Assembly (NCBI GenBank): GCA_008632985.1
Contig: QPGO01000006.1
Coordinates: forward strand, 496,001-551,386
From: Psammoneis japonica
Lineage: Eukaryota
DNA length: 55,386 nucleotides
Direction: 5' to 3'
In this document: positions 647-54,637 of the stretch, in pieces
Position numbering within the stretch: the stretch's first letter is position 1
How the letters are laid out: the number at the start of each line of letters is the position of its first letter
Program-made: the position numbers and the translations under genes
Notes under the pieces: generated by a model
Seen by the model: the letters and a program-made list of their open reading frames with translations, nothing else
Databases searched by the model: none
What the model was told of the DNA's origin: nothing

Positions 647-3619
647 TCAAGCAGCCACCCCCAACAAGTTTGTTTTTGAAAGATGAAAATCCCTGGCTCG
701 GAAGCAACAGAATTTTTTGGTCAGATCCGATTGCAGATTCGGCGCCAGATGCAACGGCAGCAAATGTGTTGGCAAACTAGTCCAAAATGGAGCAACAGCA
801 ATTGGCACACAGCATGGCACAGGGCATGGTGCAACAGGGATGGGTGGTGCGCGTCTCGGCGCTGCCTTGTCTTGAGAACACGAGGACTTGGTTTTTTTCG
901 CGCTCGGCCCCTCAGCACACGTCGGCGTCGGCTGTTGTGACTCGCAGTTCCTTTTGCATGGGTTCACCACAGTTGAAGCAGGATTAGATCGAGTTGCACA
1001 TGGGTTTCTTGTCCCACACTTGCTGCACATGCATCTGTCAGGGTCGTTGTTGCTGCTCGCAGCTGCTGCGCCAAATTTTGCTTTTCTCGCTTCGAGTTCC
1101 TCGCCCGCGCTTTCCAGTTGTTTCGGGCATGCTGAAAAATGCCGCTCACCATTGTCTGCTTTCAATTCTTCGACATTTTCATGCACAGGATGACCGACTC
1201 CCGCTTTCTCCGCCAACTTGTTGTTGTGGTCGAGCCTGCTGTGGTTGAGAAACGTCGGCACCCCACGAAAGGCGTGCGGAATCTTGGCGCGCTCGTCCGC
1301 CGTCATCTCGTCCATTCGAAGACGCTGGCGTGTCGCAATGTTGCATTCACACGTTCCAGCAAGGCACAGTGCATCTATGAAGGTGCTCCTGGAACCGGTG
1401 TTTCCAAAATGCTTGACGATGTGATGAAACTTCTCAAGCTTGGATTCGGTGCCGGTGGTGGTGACGTGCGTGTCAAGCTTGCACTTCGACCATTTTGAAG
1501 GCTTGATGACTCTGTGCAAGTCTCCACGTTGCAAAGGCTCATCGAGTCCACGAGCTGTCACCTTTGCATTTTCCACCGCTGGCTTGGCATCTTCCGTGAA
1601 GAGAGGCCTGCCAGAATCTGGATCATGCCGTCCGCCGGCGTCTGCCGCTCCAGGAGATGCAGAGCACTTGTGCCGATCAAACCACACTTCAAGATTGCTG
1701 TTGCGTGTTGCGAGAGGGTGAGTCCACCTTCGCACACACTTCTGGCAGTTTTTCCATTTCTTGCTCTTCTTGATCTCTTGAATTTCTTTGCTTGCACGTG
1801 TCTTGCCGCAGAGCCTTCCAAACATTAGCGCATTGATCACCCGCGCCTCGTTGGATTCATCATTGTGCCGAATGCAATCTTTCAAGTCACGAACGGCACG
1901 ACAGCAATCAATGTGCGTGCCTCGCAAGGTGCGAATGATTTGGTTAGTCCAGTGCCAAAGACCAAGCCGACACACTGTGTCCTGACCAAAAATTTCTTTC
2001 CAAAACTCTTCCTTGTTCGGCCATGCATCAGAACAGTGAACTTGGGGGTTCACATTTGGACGTCTGGCGAATTGCTCAGCAGCATGGGCAAAATCCTTGG
2101 TTTCCAGTGATGGCACCACTGCCGCCACCCCAATTTCCCCCGTCTCAACAGCCATGGTGAAAAGTCCTTTTCCGTCATTGTCTTTGTAATTTTTCAATTG
2201 GTCGAAGGTGTGGTCGGAAGCAATGCTCACACGACAACCGACTGATTGGATCTCTCTTGTGTGTCGCATGTTGTCGCTTGTGCCAGTGTTGGCATGTTTC
2301 GAATCGGCAACTGCGTCAAACATGTCGCGTGCGTTCTGACCTGTTGGTCCATGTCGACCCAACCACTTCTCAAAAGTTGACAACACTGGTGTGGGCGTCG
2401 TGGAACTTTTTGCCACTTCGATCCACCTCAAATGATGTCGCTCCTCCATGTCAAGGTAAGCTTGGCCACGTTGTTGATGTGGGCATGCCGACATGGCATC
2501 ACCGTTGCTGCTTTCCTTCAATTCGTGCTCAATGCATCTTGTTGTTGTCAAGTCCACATGAAACGAGGAGTTCGCGACCGCGTGCCGAACGTCCACGGGA
2601 TGTGACTGTCGGACAAGCTTGGGCAACTTAACCAGCAGCTTGCCATCATTCCCCTTGCATTTGCAACCACATTTGTTGCATTTGCAGTGCATTGCTGTTG
2701 CGCAATCGGTGTGTCCACTGACTTTAAAGATGGGAGTTGCCGGACAGTCCTTTTTTACATCAAATTGCTGGTGCATCATCTCACCACCACAATCATTGAC
2801 ACAAGGCAAAAACACACCCAGACAATTGAGCTCCCAGCGAAGTGTGTGTGCTGTGATGCCCTCCATCTCACTGTGGAGATCATCTGGGGCAGAGAATGTG
2901 TTGTCACGAGGTGCTGTAAATGACAAGGTGCCAGGGGGGAAGTGCTTCTGGTGCCATGCCAGTTTCTTCTTGTTTGCCTCTCCACCCATCATCTCGTTTG
3001 AGTCGGCATGAAATCGAGATGGCAATGAGTCCAACAGGTGCAATGTCAAAGCTTGCACTGGTGCAGAACAGGAGTTCTTCTTTTTCTTGCATGCATCAAC
3101 TCTTTTGCGAATCTCTCTCTTCAGCACCTCTGGAGAAAGAAGATCTTCTTCCACATTCACGGCAGAAAGCAGTGTGTTCTTCGACGGGACGGCAGTGATG
3201 GTGGCAGCAGCAGCACCGGCAGTGGCAGTGACGGGCATGGTGTCGGCAGCATCACTCAACAAGTCGGTCGTTGCAGATGGCTCACTGTTCTTTGAAGCCC
3301 TGGTGTGAATGCGGAACAGGTCCTCCATGCCTTCCTTGGTTGGACGCTGAAAACCCTGCACTTTTTTTGCGTTCTTTCTTGCGCCACTGGTCACAAAGCA
3401 GTGGACAGCCACGTTTCGCTCGGCGCTCATGTTCTTTCCATAACACATGGATTTTGGGCAGCTGGGATCATGGCCCTTTTTGCAGGTGGGTCCTTGTTTG
3501 CATCTCTTGCACTCAACAACCTTTTCTTGAGCAGTGTGACTGTTCGACAGAGTCAGAATTTGCGATTCTGCCTCCGCCGCCGGTGATGTTGTAAACCGAG
3601 GCGCATTTTTTCCTGACAA
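647..3619 (-). mobile_element. Zisupton/KDZ-like (DUF6729-like) DNA transposase ORF, TpA-hypermutated
   Basis: 990-aa ORF with motifs SDHTF, ETGEI, CSDAWP, RLGLWHW and GTESKLEKFHH (cf. Zisupton LDIWH and GSTSLESFH). Cys cluster upstream. Only 3 Tyr found, with excess Cys/His. Confidence 0.6.
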
Positions 3620-37300: not shown

Positions 37301-39810
37301 ACAACAGCAATGATCTGCAATCAGAGAAAGATGAGACAAGGACAACATTCAACATTGAAAGCACAGAGCTGTGGCACCTGGGTGCACAAGCAGCTGTTCA
37401 AATTCACTCACTTCCCAATGATTTGCAAATGAACACAAACAGAGCCAACCAGACAGGGGCAGGGGTGCTGAAAAGGAAAAAAAAAAACACAAAACAAAAA
37501 TGACAACAAAGGACACAGGAGCAATGCTGCAAGATCAAACATGCCAGTGCAGAGACACAAAAGGGATCAAGCAACTGACCCACATTGTTTGCCATTGCAC
37601 CTGTGCTGCAAAGTCAGCACAATGGTGTGGCTGCCTGCATCAAATGCGGCAGAACCCAAACTGCAGTGCGGCCAAAACCTGCATGGAAATTGAAGGAAGG
37701 ACCTGAATTGTTCCATTGGGCCACAACCAAATTGTCCCCCCGTTTGATGAAGGAAGAAAATTGCAGAGAAGAGCAACAAACACTCCAGGAGCCAGAAGAG
37801 GTCTGGGCCAGTCCCTTTTAAATGCACAAGATTGCTTGTGATGACAAAATGAAGGCATGTCAATGAAAGCCTCAGTTGGAAAGGGCAGGCAAGTGCACAA
37901 GATTGCTTGTGATGACAAAATGAAGGCATGCCAATGAAAGACTCAGCTGGAAAAGGCAGACAAGTGCCGCCATCACACCATCTGAAAGAAAAGGCAACAT
38001 GAGTGCCAGATCTCACATGGAAAAATGTGCAGGGGTGGCGGCTGTGAAACCAAGAGGCAGAGTTGTGTGCAAAACCCAGACCCATCAGCACACTGCCAAA
38101 ATCTTCCAAAGTGGCATTGGTGGCATCATGTTTTGGACAGCAAAAATGGCATGGTTGCACGGCAGGAAGAAAGGGTTGACAAAGACCAAACTCCTGCATG
38201 CATGGATGAGACTCCAAAAAAAAAAAAGAAGAAGAAGCACAATGGCTGATGCCCAAAGCCCCATTTGTCATGAGCAAGCTTGGCTTGTTGTTTCAATGAA
38301 GAAAGGAAAAGACTGCAATTGCTCCATCAAGAAGGCATCATGTTCACCTGCAGCCCAATTTCTTTGCACCAGGCATCGCTGGAAAACCGTGATGCTTGTC
38401 CAAGAATTTGCAAAAGTTTGAAAACAAAAAGAAGTTTGCGGCACCACCCTCACGAAAGTCGAGACCGCAAGATTTTCAACAAGTGCTTTTGGGCACAATT
38501 TGCCAAGAAAGGAAGCAAGCCAATTGCAAATGCAAAATTGTGAGACACCTCAAGCAAAATTTGGAACAAGGACTCATTTGAGCAGCCAGAGACATTCAAG
38601 ATTCAAGAGCGACTTGAATTTCATGCCAACATCATTGCATCTGAACCTGATGTTGCTCAAGGAGACAAATGAGTTCAAGCCGTCATCGTTTCTGATGATG
38701 CTGTGCAATCTTGTTGTCATGTCAAAGAGAAGAAGATTGCTGAGGAAATTGAGTCTCCAACAAGTCCTGACAATCAAGACAATGACAAGAGGTGGTGAGG
38801 CACATGAGTTTCATCAAAAAGGCCCCAAAACTCAATCAATCACAACACACACACTCCCCTTCACAGGGTTGCCTTCTTCAGATGGCAGAAAGACTGTTTG
38901 ACAAACACCGACATTGTCTGCATCCCTGAAGCTCTGATGTACACTTTTGTTCACAATGCGTGCACTTTTCAGAAATTGTGATGGCCAAAAAAAAAGAAGC
39001 CAGCCAACACCCAAAGAAAAGAAGGACATCAAGTGCGCCACAAATCTGCCCCTTGACATTTGCAACAGGTGCGCCAAAGGATGCAGAAAAGAGCAAAGCA
39101 TGAGACTCCCAAGCAGATGCACTGTGGTGGTGCAAATGCAGCAAAAAAGATGCCAATGATGCAGAGATGCAATGAGTGATTGACCATGAATGCAAGATGA
39201 CCAACCCAACTCCACACACAGCTTCAACAAAACACAAACAGCATCTGTTAGCGAGTGATGATCAAACAGCACGAAATGAGGAAACAGAGACAAAAAAACT
39301 TGCCACCACAATGTTGTTGACCACCCAGATGTCACCTGCACCACATGATGCAACCAAACAAGCCACGGGTCCAGGCACATGAGCTTTTGCAGCATGTGCA
39401 GGGCAGCCAAAGCACACCAGGAAATCAAACGAAGCAGCACGCCAACAGCAGTGCATCAGATGAGGTTTTGCCACCCACAACAAAAGGGGCACAGAAAGAG
39501 GAGGTAATTCCATTGTGTGGGCCACACTGCTCCGGCTGTCAGTGCTGATGACTGCAGCTGTGTGTTGGCTCTTGCAAGCAGAGCAGCTGTGGTGGCACAA
39601 TGTTGGAGGGGACTCAGTCAAGAGGCAGGGGAAGTGGTGCACCCCTCTTCAGCCACAAATGCTTTCCTTTGTTCTTCAGAAGAATCGAGGAAAAGAGAAA
39701 GCAAAACAACTCAACGGCCAATCCAAATCTTGCTCTTCATCGTGGGGAGCCGCACAGGGCTCGTTCAATTTGCGTTGCGTGGGATGCAATGTTTGGCCTG
39801 TCCTTCGGGG
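34300..39810 (+). mobile_element. Degenerate DNA-transposon-like relic(s), TpA- and CpG-depleted
   Basis: ASDKVFGLLVVKNSWSKW...CGWNKQRLERC (36990-37185) resembles the SDEAF..N.W...GWS.EG..RY accessory ORF of some DNA transposons. Internal tandem repeats. Confidence 0.4.
37823..37967. repeat. 71-bp tandem repeat x2
   Basis: TGCACAAGATTGCTTGTGATGACAAAATGAAGGCATG at 37823 and 37894. Confidence 0.9.
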
Positions 39811-40070
39811 TGTGTGGCCTATGAAACGTCACTCCCACATAAGATGAAAGGCTAATTAACTTGATAAAAGGCTTATTTTCGGCTATATGACGTCAATTTA
39901 GGCTACTTCTTACCGCCTTTTTCAAAGCCTCGAGTCAAAACGATGTAGATCTCTGATCACAAATTGCGTACCGTGTTAAAATGTAGTAACTCTTATGCAA
40001 ACACAATGGAGAAAATGTGTTGTTTATTACGCAAGTCTGATTGTAAGACTCCCTAAGGTTCGGTGTCATC

Positions 40071-41177
40071 TTACTGGATCGGCATGCGCAGCATCATGCC
40101 GTTGTCCTTGACGATTCCGTTGCAAATCACACATGAGCAACCGACGGCATGGGCGTTGCCCGAGGAGCAACTTTTACATCCACAAGTTGCCCCATGCTTC
40201 GCAGAGCTGCAGCTACTGCAAGCACAACCAGCGGCGTGAACGGCGGTGGCGCACGACCCGCAAACGCAACCAGCAGCGTGCATACTACCAGCGCTGCAAC
40301 TGCTGCACGAGCAACCCACGGCGTGCATGGAAGTCTTGCAAGATTCACAAGCGCATCCAGCGGCGTGCATCACCGAGCTGCAACTGCTACAAGAGCATCC
40401 AGCGGCGTGCATCATCATCATAGAGCTGCAGCTGCTACAAGAGCATCCAGCGGAATGCATGACGGTCTTGCAAGATCCACAAGAGCAACCAGCGGCGTGA
40501 AGAGCGGTAGCGCATGATGCGCAAGCACATTCGGCACCGTGGTTCATACTACTGCAGACTCCACAGGTACATCCAGCGTCGTGCATCACGGACTTGACGG
40601 GAGCCGAGCAGGTGTCGCAAGAGCACCCAGCGGCGTGCATCGTGGCGGGAGGCTCGGCGCAAACGCCGCAGATGCAAGAGTCTCCGTGAAAGCGCACAGG
40701 AGACGTTGGGATACCGCACGAGTCGCAAGCACATCCAGCGGCATGCATGACGGCAGGGGGGCTGCATGCGTCACATGCGCATCCAGCGGCATGCATCGCG
40801 GCCGGGGTACTGCAGACACTACAGTTGCAACCGGCGGTATGATTCGCGGGGACGCAAGAACTGCATTCGCATCCTGCAGCATGAGCGCTATGAGCCTGAA
40901 CGCAGGAGCAGCTCTTACAAGTACATCCTTCGGAATGAACTCCAACAGCCTTCAAAAGGCATGATCCGCACAAGTTTCCGGGAGAGCAAGTCGACTTGCA
41001 GGACGTAAAGTCTTTCTGAAGCGAATGGGTGTCAAACGTAAGTTGGCTTCCAGAGCTCGCCCCGATATGAAAGGAACGAGTCGTACCCAAGCGAATTGCA
41101 TGGCGAAAGGCATACTGCGGTCGCATCAAGAGCGATCTTGCCGACTTGGCGGCAATCGCCGCATTCGCAGACGCCAT
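40071..41177 (-). CDS. Large metallothionein-like protein, 18 x H-x3-C-x-C-x2-C, with mitochondrial-type presequence
   Basis: Repeats such as MHAAGCACDAC and HGDSCICGVC. The first ~45 aa are Arg/Ala/Ser-rich with no acidic residues (…RLGTTRSFH). Confidence 0.8.
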   Translation of the reverse strand: MASANAAIAAKSARSLLMRPQYAFRHAIRLGTTRSFHIGASSGSQLTFDTHSLQKDFTSCKSTCSPGNLCGSCLLKAVGVHSEGCTCKSCSCVQAHSAHAAGCECSSCVPANHTAGCNCSVCSTPAAMHAAGCACDACSPPAVMHAAGCACDSCGIPTSPVRFHGDSCICGVCAEPPATMHAAGCSCDTCSAPVKSVMHDAGCTCGVCSSMNHGAECACASCATALHAAGCSCGSCKTVMHSAGCSCSSCSSMMMMHAAGCSCSSCSSVMHAAGCACESCKTSMHAVGCSCSSCSAGSMHAAGCVCGSCATAVHAAGCACSSCSSAKHGATCGCKSCSSGNAHAVGCSCVICNGIVKDNGMMLRMPIQ

Positions 41178-41247
41178 GGTTCGAAGGAGAATTGAAATGA
41201 TGTGGCGATCGACACCTTACGTAGATTCTACGGGAGATTTGTACTAC

Positions 41248-41455
41248 TGACGTTTGCAGAAAAGAATTGAGAAAGCACGAGGTCTGATCTCTCTGAAATC
41301 TCTCTTCGCTTTGATAGATGATCGTCGTCGTTCAACACACGTCATCGAACGCTTTTTTGACAGAATAGATACGCTGACGTGAGCAAGGCCCTTCCCCATC
41401 CGAAGTACAGGAGACACTGGTACAACACGTCAGATTGACGAAGATATTCTGACGT
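41248..41455. promoter_or_regulatory. Cluster of five TGACGT/ACGTCA motifs (CCRE/bZIP-type) in a bidirectional promoter
   Basis: TGACGT at 41248, 41375 and 41450; ACGTCA at 41339 and 41427. Confidence 0.65.
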
Positions 41456-41699
41456 CGTTGAGAACCCAAATGTCACCGTGTTGATTGATTTGATTGTGTG
41501 TGAACGCAACGATGAGAAACAAAATTTCAAATTCGACGAACGCGTACGTATGTGAAGATCTCACGTAGATTCTGTACGGGGTCCACAGGCGAAGAAGTCA
41601 TGTCAACATCACTGCTGTAGAGCTAGATCTTCGCAACCCTCACAATCCTCGTTTGTTGTCAAGTAAACGCCTTCACAAGCTTCAACCATCACGATAACC

Positions 41700-42491
41700 A
41701 TGTTGTTCTCTGTTGCCGTCAAGCGTACCGCCATGGCCGCCGCCAAGCACGAGGGCCGTGCCCTCTCCACGGTCGCATCCGCCTTCGGACGTGCCGTTGC
41801 CGCTAAGAGCCCTGCCTCGACTATGTCTCACACTTGTGGTCCCAACTGTGCGTCTCCCTTCTGCACCCACAAGTCTCCAACGGCTCGTCAATTTTTCTCT
41901 TTTAGCACGGATGCGCACGATTTGGACACTTCCACCCCCGACAAGTGCCTCGAGGCCCTCGAAGCGGGCAACGTACGCTTTACCGAAGGCGACATTATTG
42001 CACCCAACCGCAACATGGACCGCGTCAAGGAACTCGCGGGTGGCCAAGCTCCCTTTGCCGCGTTTTTGTCGTGTGCCGACAGTCGCGTGCCCGTCGAGAT
42101 GATCTTCGATCAGGGGTTTGGTGACGTGTTCATCTGCCGCGTTGCGGGAAATATCGTCAACACCGAAACGATCGGATCGTTGGAGTTCGGATGCGCCGTG
42201 CTCGGTGCCAAGGTCCTGTACGTCTTGGGTCATTCCAGCTGTGGAGCCGTCAATGCAACTATTGCGGGAGATGCAGTTCCCGGCGTCATCAGCTCCTTGT
42301 ACTACGGTATCAAGCCCGGATGTGAGGCCGGTCACGGTGACTTGGACGCCTCGATTGCTGAAAATGTCAAGTTTCAGGTCAAGCAGCTCGAAGTTTCTCC
42401 CGTCTTGAAGGGCCTTGTCGCTGAAGGAAAATTGAAAATTGTCGGAGGAGTTTATGACCTCGCCACGGGAAAGGCGAACAGAGTCTGCTAA
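41700..42491 (+). CDS. Beta-class carbonic anhydrase with mitochondrial-type presequence
   Basis: LEAGNVRF, Zn ligands CADSRV and GHSSCGAV, RVAGN, GSLEFG, GGVYDLATG. Basic Ala-rich N-terminus. Confidence 0.93.
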   Translation: MLFSVAVKRTAMAAAKHEGRALSTVASAFGRAVAAKSPASTMSHTCGPNCASPFCTHKSPTARQFFSFSTDAHDLDTSTPDKCLEALEAGNVRFTEGDIIAPNRNMDRVKELAGGQAPFAAFLSCADSRVPVEMIFDQGFGDVFICRVAGNIVNTETIGSLEFGCAVLGAKVLYVLGHSSCGAVNATIAGDAVPGVISSLYYGIKPGCEAGHGDLDASIAENVKFQVKQLEVSPVLKGLVAEGKLKIVGGVYDLATGKANRVC

Positions 42492-42869
42492 GAATGCACC
42501 TCATGCATGAATGATTGGAGCTGGATAGAGTTGGCGGTCTGTCTATCCTACCTGTGGCTCTTTAGGATTCAACAGCATAGTATATTATATGATAGCACAA
42601 TCATTGCTGGTATGTGTACGGTATTATTGAACTACCGTCCATAGAGGGGCTCTTTCGTTCACCGCCTTACTCTGTACATTCTCCGCTGCGGCCTGTTTTT
42701 CGCACTCTTCTTGCTATTCTCGATCACGTGTGCTGGTGGGCGTCAGCAACAAAAAGTGACAAATGACCGCATCAACCAGTTTCACAAGGTCGCGATAACG
42801 ACGAAAAGCACAACTCTCGGACATCATCACTTGCCGTGCAAGACAACACAGTGCACTTAACCTGAAGTG

Positions 42870-46381: not shown

Positions 46382-47539
46382 TCATAGATCAAGGAACTTG
46401 TCAATGTCTTCAGGAGACCAAGAGCTTTCGTCACTCAACGAAGAGTCGGTAAGGTCGTCAGTCTCCAAATTAGGCGGATCAAGACCGTCAATCTCCACAT
46501 TGGGTGGATCAAGGATCTGAACGTTGTTTGCACCCTCGTCTACAAGGACGGGAACTTCGTGAAGAGGGGCGGCGATGGTGCTCCTGTCGGCGAGGTCGTC
46601 AATCTCCACATTGGGCGGATCAAGGATCTGGAGGTTGATTGCGCCCTCGTCTACAAGGGCGGGAACTTCAGGAGACCCAGAGCTTTCGTCACCTAACGGA
46701 AAGTCGGCAAGGTCGTCAATCTCCAAATCAGCCGGATCAAGGCCCTCAACCTCCAGATTGGGCGGATCAAGGATCTGGAGGTTGATTGCGCCCTCGTCTA
46801 CAAGGGCGGGAACTTGATGAGGAGGGGCGGCGATGGTGCTCGTGTCGGCATGGTCGTCAATCTCCACATTGGGTGGATCAAGGATCTGGAGGTTGATTGC
46901 GCCCTCGTCTACAAGGACGGGAACTTCATGAGGAGGGGCGGCGATGGTGCTCCTGTCGGCGAGACCGTCAATCTCCACATTGGGTGGATCAAGGATCTGA
47001 ACGTGGTTTGAGCCCTCGTCTACAAGGACGGGAACTTCATGAGGAGGGGCGGTGATGGTGCTCGTGTCGGCAAGGTCGTCAATCTCCACATTGGGTGGAT
47101 CAAGGATCTGGAGGTTGATTGCGCCCTCGTCTACAAGGGCGGGAACTTGATGAGGAGGGGCGGCGTTGGCCCCCCTGGGGGCGTTGCGGCGATTCATCCT
47201 GTCGCGGCGCAACACATCTCGAAAGGCTTGAGCCACCTTTTGCCTTGCTCGCTCGGCACGCATCTCGTGCCAACGGTCGGTGGCTCGGTTCCTCCGAACA
47301 AATCGGCCACCATTGCTGTAGATCTGTTCAACAAGAGCGGTGGAGATTGTGGTTTTATCACGCTTGCTAGCAGCTTCATATGCGGCGCTCCTCTGACGAA
47401 CCTCTTGAAGATACCTCTGACTTCCCACATGGTTGTTCCTTTCAGCACCACGTTCCACAATGACATCACGATCGGTGACCGCATCGGGGATGGGATCGGT
47501 ATTGTCTGGGTATCGGGCGTCCATCGTGTTCAAATGCAA
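46382..47539 (-). CDS. DUF6824-domain protein with acidic ~40-aa tandem repeats
   Basis: DVIVERG...NHVG...K..IS..LV....GGRFV...W......ARQKVAQAFRD, followed by ~6 copies of VP.LVDEG...QILDPPN.E. Confidence 0.85.
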   Translation of the reverse strand: MHLNTMDARYPDNTDPIPDAVTDRDVIVERGAERNNHVGSQRYLQEVRQRSAAYEAASKRDKTTISTALVEQIYSNGGRFVRRNRATDRWHEMRAERARQKVAQAFRDVLRRDRMNRRNAPRGANAAPPHQVPALVDEGAINLQILDPPNVEIDDLADTSTITAPPHEVPVLVDEGSNHVQILDPPNVEIDGLADRSTIAAPPHEVPVLVDEGAINLQILDPPNVEIDDHADTSTIAAPPHQVPALVDEGAINLQILDPPNLEVEGLDPADLEIDDLADFPLGDESSGSPEVPALVDEGAINLQILDPPNVEIDDLADRSTIAAPLHEVPVLVDEGANNVQILDPPNVEIDGLDPPNLETDDLTDSSLSDESSWSPEDIDKFLDL

Positions 47540-47994
47540 ATGAATGATGCTAAATTCGTTTTATGAGAATTCTGTGAAAAAAAAATGAGGCTCTAGCGCG
47601 AGGGTTTCACCGTGTAACTTCTTTTATTTTTTCTCTTCATCCTGACAAGTACGCCCGAGACGATCGCCTCACTAGCGAGACTGAAAACAATCTTTTCCAG
47701 TGAGCTCAGTAGCGCCCACTTTTTCCTCTCTCTTGCGCACATCAAGCAGGGAAATCATCATCCGATTGTGTTGCCCCCATGACGTAAGCTGCCTTTTTCT
47801 CTTTAATATACAATGTCACAATATCAGTATAACACGACATAATGTGAGCGAAGCATCGAGTGAATTTCAGACGCTGATATGTGACGGCTTGACCCGAACA
47901 TGGTTGCAGCATCAATTGACACCGCCGATCCGTAGTGGCGGCGGCACATCCACAACATTGTCGTCATGCGAGCATGATAGAAGTACAGTAATAA

Positions 47995-51667: not shown

Positions 51668-53660
51668 ATGAGCGACTCCGATCCTGATGATGAGGTCAGG
51701 ACTGAACTCCTGGCGAATTTAGAGAAAGACATTTCTAAACTGAAACACGTGAACGCGAAGAAGGAAGTAAAGATCAAAAAGCTGGAAAAGGAAAAATTGA
51801 GCAAGGATAGACAGATCGAACAGCTGGAAAAGGAAAATGCGAGTAAGGATAGACATATCGAAGAGTTGGAGGAAACAGTCACGTCTTATCAAGGTAAGTT
51901 TCAAGTGGCGTCCCGACACCAGCACCTTTTCTCTCCTCGTTTCATATATGCGATGAATCGTCACTAATCATTTTTTCTCTGCGTCAAAGAATTCGATGAT
52001 TTTTTGAGTGAGCCCGCACAAGATGACGCAGCCAGCCCTCAAGGGCAAGCCGCGCAAGCCCCTGTTGTCTCGCCAGGAGGCAGTGGCGAATCGCACAATA
52101 ACGGTGCGAGGATCCGGGAATCTCTCCATATGTTCTGTTGTGTCAAGTCCGCCTAACACCTTTCTCTATTTCGCATTTCCAGTTTCAACAGATTCGTCAT
52201 CAGTTGCGCAGGTCACGGTCGCGGAGGGAGACTCCGAAAAATCATCCTCGCCGGTAACGAGTGCCAAAAGGACATCCAGCAAGCCCAAGTCCATTCCGCC
52301 CAATTCCGTTCATCTTCGACACCGAGCAAACAGAAATGCAACTGACGGACAAATGACGTCGCTGTGGAGAGAGTTTGTGCTAAGTCACGAGACGGTGGGT
52401 GATATGAATGCACTTGAAGTAAAGCAACACTTTTATGAGTTTTTGCTTCACAAGTATTGGCAAGAGTTTCTCCAGAGTTATGACGGCGATCTGAATGCTC
52501 CCGACGTGGAGAAAAGGTTCGATGAATACATGCAACATAAGCAATATGCAAGAAATCCGCGTTTCTTTGTTTGCATCGAGCGGGGAGGAGAAAACAAAGG
52601 GTACGGGGACCTATGTGTGAACTCCACCGGCAAACGGTTCCGAGAAGCAAAAGACGTTGATATCACTAACAACGTCAATGACTTGAGACGAGATCGGAAG
52701 CGAAAGCGAAAGCGAAAGAGACCTCCCAGCCAGGATGATCACTATGAAAAGGATGACAACGAGAGAGACGATGATGATGACGACAGCGACCCTAAAGGAG
52801 GAGGAAAGAATAGGGGTAAGCGTCAACGCAAGGCGACCGGTACACCCCGAGCTGTTTGTCAAGATGAAGGAGGGAGCGGAACAGCTCCTGGCGACAGCAC
52901 AAGCACAAATGGGCAAAGCAGAAATTGTTCGAAAGACTCGGCGTCATCTGAAGATAGTACAGAAAAAGATGAGCGTCGAAAGGAAGACGAAGTATCCTTC
53001 AATGCATTCGCTAGTGTCGGAGCAAACGGCGACGACGGAAAGGAAGCAAGATTCTCGGTGGTTGAAGTTTTTATTCCGGCTACCGACGCTTCAGTAGTGT
53101 CTCAAATCACCAGTCATTGTGATTCACCCGGATCCCCTACTGCAGCAACTGACTCGTCTAATGAAAGTCGGGTTGCGGATTCTCCAAAGGAACCTGCTAC
53201 TACCTACGAATTGCCGGACGCTCCCAGCAGCACTCAGATTAATTTCCTACCTTCATCGCCTTTCGATGTGTTTTTAGGAAGAGGCAAACGAAATCATGAA
53301 CGAAATCGTTTCTTTCACAAGGCTATCGAAGAGAATCGAAAACGATACCGCGAGGCTACCAAGCAAGAAAAGACTAGCATCGCACAGGAAATTACAAATG
53401 GGGTACGATGCAAAGGAGGGAGGTTTCTTCGAAAAGATGACGCAACAGGAATGTACGTCGAAGCCAGCGAAAGGGTGGCTAGAGCAAAGGTGAGTCATGC
53501 ACTGCGGGCACCAAAGCCCGCTTGTCCATCGCCGCAACAAGGTGCTTATAAGAAGAAAGAGAGGGTCATTCATCAAAGTGATCAAGGAATTTTCGAGAAT
53601 TTATTTTCAAGTCAACGTCAAATTTATCAAGAGCTGTTGGAGTCGAAGGAGGATACTTGA
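51668..53660 (+). CDS. Coiled-coil protein with C-terminal DUF6824; introns 51894-51989 and 52104-52182
   Basis: Two phase-1 GT..AG introns with CTAA(C/T) branch sites give a continuous frame. DVFLGRG...GGRFL...ARAKVSHALR; NLS-like RKRKRKRKR. Confidence 0.8.
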
Positions 53661-54121: not shown

Positions 54122-54637
54122 NNNNNNNNNNNNNNNNNNNNNNNNNNNNNNNNNNNNNNNNNNNNNNNNNNNNNNNNNNNNNNNNNNNNNNNNNNNNNNN
54201 NNNNNNNNNNNNNNNNNNNNNNNNNNNNNNNNNNNNNNNNNNNNNNNNNNNNNNNNNNNNNNNNNNNNNNNNNNNNNNNNNNNNNNNNNNNNNNNNNNNN
54301 NNNNNNNNNNNNNNNNNNNNNNNNNNNNNNNNNNNNNNNNNNNNNNNNNNNNNNNNNNNNNNNNNNNNNNNNNNNNNNNNNNNNNNNNNNNNNNNNNNNN
54401 NNNNNNNNNNNNNNNNNNNNNNNNNNNNNNNNNNNNNNNNNNNNNNNNNNNNNNNNNNNNNNNNNNNNNNNNNNNNNNNNNNNNNNNNNNNNNNNNNNNN
54501 NNNNNNNNNNNNNNNNNNNNNNNNNNNNNNNNNNNNNNNNNNNNNNNNNNNNNNNNNNNNNNNNNNNNNNNNNNNNNNNNNNNNNNNNNNNNNNNNNNNN
54601 NNNNNNNNNNNNNNNNNNNNNNNNNNNNNNNNNNNNN
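54122..54637. other. Assembly gap (N run)
   Basis: Run of n characters. Confidence 1.

Follow-up and report, generated by a model that had tools for sequence, protein, structure and literature searches.

Carbonic anhydrases account for a major part of the demand on the scarce Zn of the ocean, and the means by which the organelles of diatoms acquire and buffer this metal are, to our knowledge, not known. A stretch of 55,386 nucleotides from the diatom Psammoneis japonica (assembly GCA_008632985.1, contig QPGO01000006.1, positions 496,001 to 551,386; this whole stretch, of 48% G+C, is referred to here as the window, and all positions are counted from its first letter) places a gene for a beta-carbonic anhydrase (CA) head to head with a gene for a protein made up largely of His/Cys repeats. 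The original prediction for this locus held that both products are mitochondrial, and that the two genes form a co-regulated module in which the repeat protein stores or delivers Zn (or Co/Cd) to the CA. The question raised by the locus is thus whether the two genes belong together or merely lie side by side. What had been observed at the locus was confirmed, while what had been made of it is supported in part: the locus is read here, with a probability of roughly 0.55, as a divergent pair encoding a CAH4/5-type mitochondrial CA and a metallothionein-like His-Cys3 protein, which share a promoter region carrying TGACGT sites and are likely to be switched together. The further step, in which the repeat protein is dedicated to the Zn supply of the CA, is an unsupported and improbable extension of that reading.

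Results

A divergent pair of complete genes

The repeat gene and the CA gene are both complete, intron-free open frames (Table 1), with stop-to-stop frames extending from 40074 to 41216 and from 41667 to 42488, respectively. The ends of the open reading frames (ORFs) and the gap between the two ATGs match exactly the head-to-head arrangement and the 522-bp spacing that had been described. A head-to-head orientation is by itself not above chance expectation; what lies in the intergenic DNA, by contrast, does not look like a product of chance.

A protein of 18 His-Cys3 units

The repeat protein had been described as carrying 18 His/Cys repeats, and a regular-expression count indeed returned 18 C-x-C-x2-C cores, each of which (18/18) has a His four residues before its first Cys, while the stricter form H-x2-G-C-x-C-x2-C is present in 15 of the 18. 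The units follow each other at a spacing of 14-19 residues, and a Met precedes nine of them. The composition of the protein is dominated by Cys (59 of 368 residues, 16%), Ala (16%) and Ser (16%), with 22 His residues (6%) and an aromatic complement of five Phe, one Tyr and no Trp; its mass is 36.2 kDa for the precursor and approximately 32 kDa when the first 35 residues are removed.

At the DNA level, Tandem Repeats Finder detected only the most regular part of the array (40266-40499; period 42, 5.4 copies, 68% matches). The codons of the ligand residues are mixed across the units, with CAC/CAT ratios of 10:8 for His and TGC/TGT ratios of 12:6 and 8:10 for the first and second Cys, respectively, and the repeat cores have a mean nucleotide identity of 63%. 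Because the His and the three Cys residues are nevertheless invariant in all 18 units, selection acts on the ligand residues at the protein level, and the array is not a young satellite.

Searches with the repeat protein returned no Pfam family at E<=1 and no NCBIfam family, a single chance-level match in the PDB (E 0.36) and no usable match in the ESM Atlas, where its recognition score was low (1210). The protein probably binds metals.

A carbonic anhydrase, probably of the CAH4/5 type

The identification of the second gene as a beta-CA was upheld by its match to PF00484 (E 5.6e-35; 121.3 bits against a curated cut-off of 25.7) and by a full set of catalytic residues, since the Zn ligands C125, H178 and C181 and the dyad residues D127 and R129 are invariant across 43 aligned CA sequences. 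Thirty-six beta-CAs in the PDB match the protein, with 1ym3_A as the top match (E 9.8e-31), and AlphaFold2 modelling based on the 43 sequences gave a confident structure for residues 73-263. In the same model the predicted local distance difference test (pLDDT) score is below 50 for residues 1-47 and 49-72, and the Cys motif of the N-terminal extension (see below) is thus without a predicted fold.

In a collection of 5.8 billion proteins, from which the CA of the window organism itself is absent, the closest match is an unnamed protein with 81% identity. The named orthologues (66-71% identity) were all contributed by transcriptome projects and belong to Nitzschia sp. RCC80, Entomoneis paludosa and Amphora coffeiformis, and the framing around the Phaeodactylum enzymes PtCA1 and PtCA2 that had been chosen for this gene is therefore not borne out. 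The comparison with CAH4/5 of Chlamydomonas, which had also been drawn, proved apt: the window CA shares 68% identity, across 73% of its length, with the Chlamydomonas protein annotated as 'mitochondrial carbonic anhydrase, beta type' (P0033; E 1.5e-73), and P0033 falls in the same eukaryotic clade. This clade was defined in a midpoint-rooted FastTree phylogeny of CA catalytic domains from 116 of 121 sequences (five were dropped because a landmark motif was missing or because they were too short). The window CA lies in a clade of 20 tips (support 0.992), the five named tips of which are Nitzschia, Entomoneis, Amphora and MMETSP entries, and this clade is nested in one of 47 tips (support 0.96) that includes CAH4/5. 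The 18 labelled tips of the larger clade, which are green algae, glaucophytes, Chromera and MMETSP/EukProt entries, are without exception of eukaryotic or transcriptome origin, and none of the four bacterial-labelled tips in the tree falls inside it; support is weak (0.634) where the diatom branch and the CAH4/5 branch meet directly in this midpoint-rooted tree, in which PtCA1/2 were not included. The protein is thus probably a CAH4/5-type beta-CA of raphid pennate diatoms, and it appears to be distinct from the Phaeodactylum type. Such an enzyme is of note given that beta-CAs are held to be rare in diatoms, the localised mitochondrial CAs being of the gamma type, with one of the delta type in T. 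pseudonana, according to excerpts of PMC5853954.

A metagenome scan with the CA yielded only four distant loci with 40-47% identity, none of them orthologous. Contigs of one metatranscriptomic library cover positions 41700-42498 at 90-99% likeness, which is compatible with transcription of the CA of close relatives, if no proof of it. When environmental contigs from three runs, together with those of the probable source run, which filtering removed almost entirely, were compared to the locus at a likeness of at least 80%, their cover fell on the CA ORF, and the repeat gene was represented by one 37-base piece only, which permits no verdict on its transcription or presence.

The N-terminal extension of the carbonic anhydrase

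The His/Cys motif that had been noticed in the N-terminal extension of the CA was located at residues 43-57 (SHTCGPNCASPFCTH). In an alignment of 13 CA sequences from diatoms and green algae, C46 and C50 of this motif do not vary at all, and G47 hardly varies. Inspection of the first 60 of the 121 CA sequences indicated that diatom-like CAs carry up to eight Cys residues ahead of the catalytic domain, and that green-algal CAs and several others of the eukaryote clade have similar Cys clusters, while CAs with Tat-like RRxWL leaders, which are probably bacterial, are without the motif. The motif can therefore not be taken as a special tie of this CA to its neighbour gene, since it is common to the aligned diatom and green-algal members, that of Chlamydomonas included.

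According to excerpts of PMC5876011, CAH4 and CAH5 are mitochondrial and low-CO2-induced, with mature masses of 20.7-22 kDa. From its mature mass, CAH4 would start at approximately residues 58-72 of P0033, i.e. inside or just after the Cys stretch of that protein, and for this reason the Cys motif of the window CA may be removed, wholly or in part, on import. A role of the N-terminal segment as a Mia40-type twin-CX3C substrate was considered and set aside, as we judge its Cys spacing to be too irregular and the segment to be Pro/Gly-rich. As a separate observation, one metatranscriptome contig from a close relative carries a 24-base in-frame insertion at window position 41845, in the Cys-rich linker; the insertion matches the longer Cys clusters of the orthologues P0002, P0003, P0005 and P0007, and the length of the linker varies among relatives.

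Predicted targeting of the two proteins

Basic, acid-poor presequences had been noted on both proteins, and by crude, home-made measures (charge, Kyte-Doolittle 11-mer and hydrophobic moment) these presequences are indeed mitochondrial-like and resemble those of CAH4/5. The first 40 residues contain six Lys/Arg in both proteins and no (repeat protein) or one (CA) Asp/Glu. The longest uncharged run within the first 45 residues is 10, and in neither protein is it longer; the maximum Kyte-Doolittle 11-mer is 0.85 in the repeat protein and 1.32 in the CA, values below those of a signal-peptide core. The helical hydrophobic moment is 0.56 for the repeat protein and 0.57 for both the CA and P0033. 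The diatom orthologues of the CA have the same type of N-terminus. A plastid location of the CA, as might be read from its ...ASAF... string, was considered and rejected, because the protein lacks a hydrophobic core and its Phe has no conserved counterpart in P0009 and P0010. Judged by these features, the CA is probably mitochondrial, and the balance tips slightly towards a mitochondrial location for the repeat protein as well.

A cluster of TGACGT sites in the intergenic region

The 522 bp between the two ATGs contain five TGACGT sites on alternating strands, within 208 bp and out of a total of 34 such sites in the window. Three of the five have the extended form TGACGTG, of which there are 11 sites window-wide. 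For the degenerate motif TGACGY, 65 sites on both strands were counted in the window, and the intergenic cluster is the densest: when the window was divided into 106 non-overlapping bins of 522 bp, 64 bins contained no site, 26 one, 11 two, four three and one five, and the Poisson probability of at least five sites is 4e-4 per bin. Furthermore, among the 27 ORFs of at least 200 aa in a mechanical list, only three have sites on both strands in the 300 bp that precede the ATG, namely the repeat gene (two sense and three antisense sites), the CA gene (one sense and one antisense site) and one other.

The significance of this arrangement lies in its similarity to CA promoters of another diatom. 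As described in excerpts of PMC7378808 and PMC11142338, the three CO2/cAMP-responsive elements (CCRE1-3) of PtCA1 and PtCA2 in Phaeodactylum, to which PtbZIP11 binds, are TGACGT, ACGTCA and TGACGC, and the low-CO2-induced PtBST1 is also distinguished by motifs that occur on both strands at up to approximately 300 bp from its start codon. The proposed co-regulation thereby gains a concrete lead in the five alternating sites of the shared 522 bp, and because these bZIP sites are shared, the two genes may well be switched together; taken on its own, co-regulation remains a tentative proposal, with the odds falling just short of even.

A second and smaller TGACGT cluster was observed at 39826-39895 (39826, minus strand; 39888, plus strand; 39890, minus strand), the last two sites of which form the palindromic TGACGTCA. 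It lies 176-245 bp past the repeat gene's stop codon, and that part of the window has neither a convincing ORF nor a Pfam match.

A family of His-Cys3 proteins

A phmmer search of 1.84 billion representatives with the repeat protein returned 38 proteins at E<=0.001, of which one reached 1e-10 or lower and none 1e-30 or lower. Word-index searches found nothing at near lengths and three matches at shorter lengths, and the addition of one further such match brought the number of retrieved proteins to 39. At least three exact H-x3-C-x-C-x2-C units, mostly at a spacing of 13-16 residues, are present in 30 of these 39 proteins, while no such unit occurs in 120 CA homologues. Twenty-three of the 39 appear stramenopile-like from their N-termini, as picked by eye. 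These are proteins of 120-300 aa with 4-8 units each (125 units in total), and their consensus, H-[GA]-A-G-C-x-C-x-S-C, is that of the window protein. Two of the 23 are named, P0130 being a Thalassiosira pseudonana gene model and P0131 a Seminavis robusta 'expressed unknown protein'.

Most of the short relatives begin with a hydrophobic N-terminal core (Kyte-Doolittle >2.0) followed by a site of the x-A-F type, as in diatom routing to the plastid or endoplasmic reticulum (ER). No relative aligns to the first 79 residues of the window protein; even for P0148, the relative with a basic, mitochondrial-looking N-terminus, BLASTP aligns the repeats only. Literature searches on diatom metallothioneins and on the Cys spacing met no description of such proteins. 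The His-Cys3 repeats thus appear, on solid sequence grounds, to define an undescribed family found in diatoms, with the window protein as the largest member and one that seems to be addressed differently from most.

Some further features of these relatives were recorded. An RR-x-F-[LV] motif, reminiscent of the twin-arginine translocation (Tat) signal, follows a signal-peptide-like start in P0131, P0147 and P0158, and P0131 matches TIGR01409 with an E of 0.021, below the cut-off, which hints at Tat routing to the thylakoid lumen. This route imports folded, cofactor-loaded proteins. In P0122, P0124, P0131, P0147 and P0140/P0141, the repeat module is joined to conserved C-terminal domains of at least two kinds, none of which has a Pfam family, and P0131 gave no usable ESM Atlas match. 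Look-alike arrays occur in other, probably bacterial, proteins, including P0132, in which the array is fused to a STAS domain.

Gene neighbourhood and feature coordinates

There are 86 stop-to-stop ORFs with a length of 130 aa or more, and a Pfam scan of 50 of them indicated that the neighbouring genes are unrelated to the pair (SDR, Arf GTPase, GNAT, phosphatase, ADH-like, epimerase-like and DUF6824). DUF6824 was found in two ORFs, at 46385-47560 on the minus strand (E 1e-21) and at 52008-53657 on the plus strand (E 5e-21). A 67-aa ORF at 39345-39548 on the plus strand ends in ...LCGPHCSGCQC, which recalls the HTCGPNC motif of the CA and may be due to chance, while a 933-aa ORF at 647-3448 on the minus strand, for which no Pfam match was obtained, contains a His/Cys/Arg-rich patch with one match to H-x3-C-x-C-x2-C near position 3239. 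The assembly has a gap in the window, a run of 516 N at 54122-54637. The coordinates of the features of the gene pair are collected in Table 1.

Table 1. Features of the divergent gene pair and of the DNA between the two genes, in window coordinates
Feature	Residues	Position	Strand	Basis or remark
His/Cys repeat gene	368 aa	40071..41177	-	Single open frame, from the frame's first ATG
Non-repetitive N-terminus of the repeat protein, first ~35-40 residues presequence-like	79 residues	40941..41177	-	Crude measures
18 units H-x3-C-x-C-x2-C	80-352	40122..40940	-	Regular-expression count
Intergenic region, divergent, putative shared promoter (522 bp)		41178..41699	.	Gap between the two ATGs
Five TGACGT sites (similar to cAMP-responsive elements, CRE, and CCRE), alternating strands: 41248+, 41339-, 41375+, 41427-, 41450+		41248..41455	.	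Motif scan
Beta-carbonic anhydrase gene	263 aa	41700..42491	+	From the frame's first ATG
Presequence-like N-terminus of the CA	1-41	41700..41822	+	Conserved among diatom orthologues
His/Cys motif of the CA, SHTCGPNCASPFCTH	43-57	41826..41870	+	Alignment
Pro_CA catalytic domain	121-258	42060..42473	+	Pfam PF00484
Zn ligands of the CA	C125, H178, C181	42072-42074, 42231-42233, 42240-42242	+	Also aligned to PDB 1ym3
Catalytic dyad of the CA	Asp127, Arg129	within 42060..42473	+	Alignment

Discussion

Several observations weigh against reading the locus as a jointly switched mitochondrial pair. The targeting assignments stem from home-made measures and not from TargetP, HECTAR, ASAFind or SignalP, and the CA contains a ...VASAF... 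string with a superficial likeness to the diatom plastid cleavage motif, the Phe of which is missing in several orthologues. Window-wide, TGACGT is only mildly enriched, with 34 sites against 26 +/- 4.6 in shuffled sequences and 5 of 100 shuffles reaching 34; furthermore, it is a general bZIP site, serving for example as an aureochrome target (PMC5812316). The five intergenic sites are located 71-278 bp from the ATG of the repeat gene and 245-452 bp from that of the CA, and the cluster may therefore serve the repeat gene alone. For the repeat protein, no full-length orthologue was found among the 1.84 billion representatives, in which only the repeats align, by contrast with the plentiful orthologues of the CA; homology through short Cys-rich units can be convergent and is not certainly separable from convergence; and AlphaFold2, run without an alignment, produced no confident fold (mean pLDDT 43.7). 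Finally, T. pseudonana, a species for which the excerpted text of PMC5853954 reports no beta-CA, also has the repeat family, and as most members of the family are of the signal-peptide type, it is not tied to this CA.

Much of this evidence also speaks for an alternative that is unlikely and still has to be taken seriously, in which chance alone has placed the two genes side by side, the repeat protein, without any special relation to the CA, serves a sediment diatom exposed to Cu, Cd and Zn for the buffering or detoxification of metals in general, and TGACGT is a generic bZIP element of light, aureochrome or stress responses that acts mainly or only on the repeat gene. Chance would make approximately one in four adjacent gene pairs divergent, the Pfam scan of 50 of the 86 ORFs revealed no other gene of a CO2-concentrating mechanism or of metal handling nearby, and an orthologous gene pair was found neither in the protein searches nor in the metagenome scan with its four distant CA loci, all of which, together with the position of the sites closer to the repeat gene and the occurrence of the family in T. 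pseudonana, would be expected of chance neighbours. Such neighbours would, however, hardly be expected to carry the same unusual non-signal-peptide N-terminus, unlike most members of the repeat family, nor would a cluster serving the repeat gene alone account for the two opposite-strand sites within 300 bp of the CA ATG, or for an arrangement of motifs like that reported for diatom CA promoters in the part of PMC11142338 that concerns them.

The nature of the repeat protein itself allows for two further readings. One His and three Cys residues are a classical structural Zn ligand set, and the protein could accordingly be an array of structural Zn knuckles for the binding of another protein or of a nucleic acid, or an organellar protein of thiol redox or Fe-S function, instead of a metal store; the fusion of the unit to other C-terminal domains, including STAS in the bacterial look-alike P0132, suggests a modular accessory domain, and the Tat-like motifs of some members, with the sub-threshold TIGR01409 match of P0131, are typical of cofactor-loaded cargo. 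We consider this highly unlikely, as the region between the ligands is composed almost exclusively of Ala, Ser and Gly and is poor in basic and aromatic residues (pI 7.0 for residues 36-368), which is poorly suited to nucleic acid binding, no partner domain is recognisable in the window protein by Pfam, and a Cys content of 16% with C-x-C and C-x2-C spacing is metallothionein-like. The other reading, that the 368-codon frame is no gene at all and arose by chance in a GC-rich minisatellite, could draw on the failure of the word-index and phmmer searches to return an orthologue, on the shorter opposite-strand ORFs that also arise from the repeats and on the low ESM Atlas score. It is scarcely credible in view of the invariance of the ligands across units with mixed synonymous codons, the in-frame, non-repetitive N-terminus that follows the first ATG, the presence of the same unit in gene models of named diatoms, one of which is labelled as expressed, and the length of the frame (381 codons from stop to stop versus 122 aa for the longest competing frame).

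On the favoured reading of a jointly switched mitochondrial pair, the CA would be synthesised as a precursor that carries a cleavable mitochondrial presequence and, after it, a Cys-rich linker. Its task in the mitochondrion would be the interconversion of CO2 and bicarbonate, which could either supply carboxylases and the urea cycle or allow respiratory and photorespiratory CO2 to be recaptured. The repeat protein would be a giant metallothionein-like protein, each unit of which offers four soft ligands, and the capacity of its mature form might be approximately 18 ions or more for Zn(II), Cd(II) or Co(II), and higher for Cu(I); its N-terminus would direct it to the mitochondrion, while most of its relatives look plastid- or ER-routed. 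Both genes would be switched together through the five bZIP sites, possibly by the CO2/cAMP pathway of the Phaeodactylum CA genes. In favour of a functional module stand the motif-rich promoter region common to the two genes, the unusual type of N-terminus that both products have, and the position of a gene for a Cys2-His enzyme next to one for a His-Cys3 array. A more specific version, in which low CO2 induces both genes from the bidirectional promoter and a CO2/cAMP-switched mitochondrial module has the repeat protein stock some 18 or more Zn (or Co/Cd) ions and metallate the Cys2-His CA, appears quite improbable.

The locus supplies a cloneable, candidate CAH4/5-type beta-CA from raphid pennate diatoms and an undescribed, Pfam-less His-Cys3 family, variants of which are seemingly targeted to different organelles. 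The putative bidirectional promoter of 522 bp represents a compact test bed for transcriptional coupling of carbon and metal homeostasis. Even in the case that no such coupling exists, the repeat family would be a promising candidate for the protein-based metal buffer that is still missing for diatoms, for which, in the excerpted text of PMC7216689, reviews offer essentially no characterised metallothionein and only a predicted one, from T. pseudonana. If the repeat protein were in fact dedicated to the CA, the His-Cys3 family would constitute the long-missing organellar metallothionein or metallochaperone system of diatoms, and its plastid and thylakoid-lumen versions would serve other Zn enzymes.

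Comparison with known systems

The idea that a metallothionein-like protein may furnish a CA with Zn has a precedent in the in-vitro transfer of Zn from mammalian metallothionein to apo-CA, to which the likeness is one of concept alone, the present case being known from its genes. The interplay of CAs and metallothioneins has been reviewed (PMC7460868), and in literature searches no case was met in which a metallothionein-like gene is genomically coupled to one for a CA. With the CCRE promoters of PtCA1, PtCA2 and PtBST1 the intergenic region shares the hexamer TGACGT/ACGTCA, its occurrence on both strands and its proximity to the start codon. Those promoters drive plastid proteins in another diatom, whereas the five sites described here are motifs in a putative bidirectional promoter.

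The CA shares with CAH4 and CAH5 of Chlamydomonas reinhardtii the PF00484 domain (68% identity over the catalytic domain), the larger clade of 47 tips, and a basic presequence followed by a Cys-rich stretch with two invariant aligned Cys residues. It differs from them in that it is a diatom protein, which the tree joins directly to the CAH4/5 branch at a weak node only, and in that localisation and low-CO2 induction are established for the Chlamydomonas enzymes and putative for the diatom one. The repeat protein has the same unit consensus and spacing as the His-Cys3 proteins found in diatoms, such as P0130 and P0131; the relatives have 4-8 units and, for the most part, signal-peptide cores, whereas the window protein has 18 units and a mitochondrial-type N-terminus.

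Finally, the repeat protein resembles the His-containing metallothioneins of plants and bacteria in its Cys content of 16%, its C-x-C and C-x2-C spacings, its likely His ligands, the almost complete lack of aromatic residues in the repeat region and its low predicted order without metal. By the classic definition, metallothioneins are of low mass, i.e. below 10 kDa. The window protein matches no curated metallothionein family in Pfam or NCBIfam, and it is set apart by its mass of 36 kDa, its strictly periodic His-Cys3 units and its organelle-type presequence.

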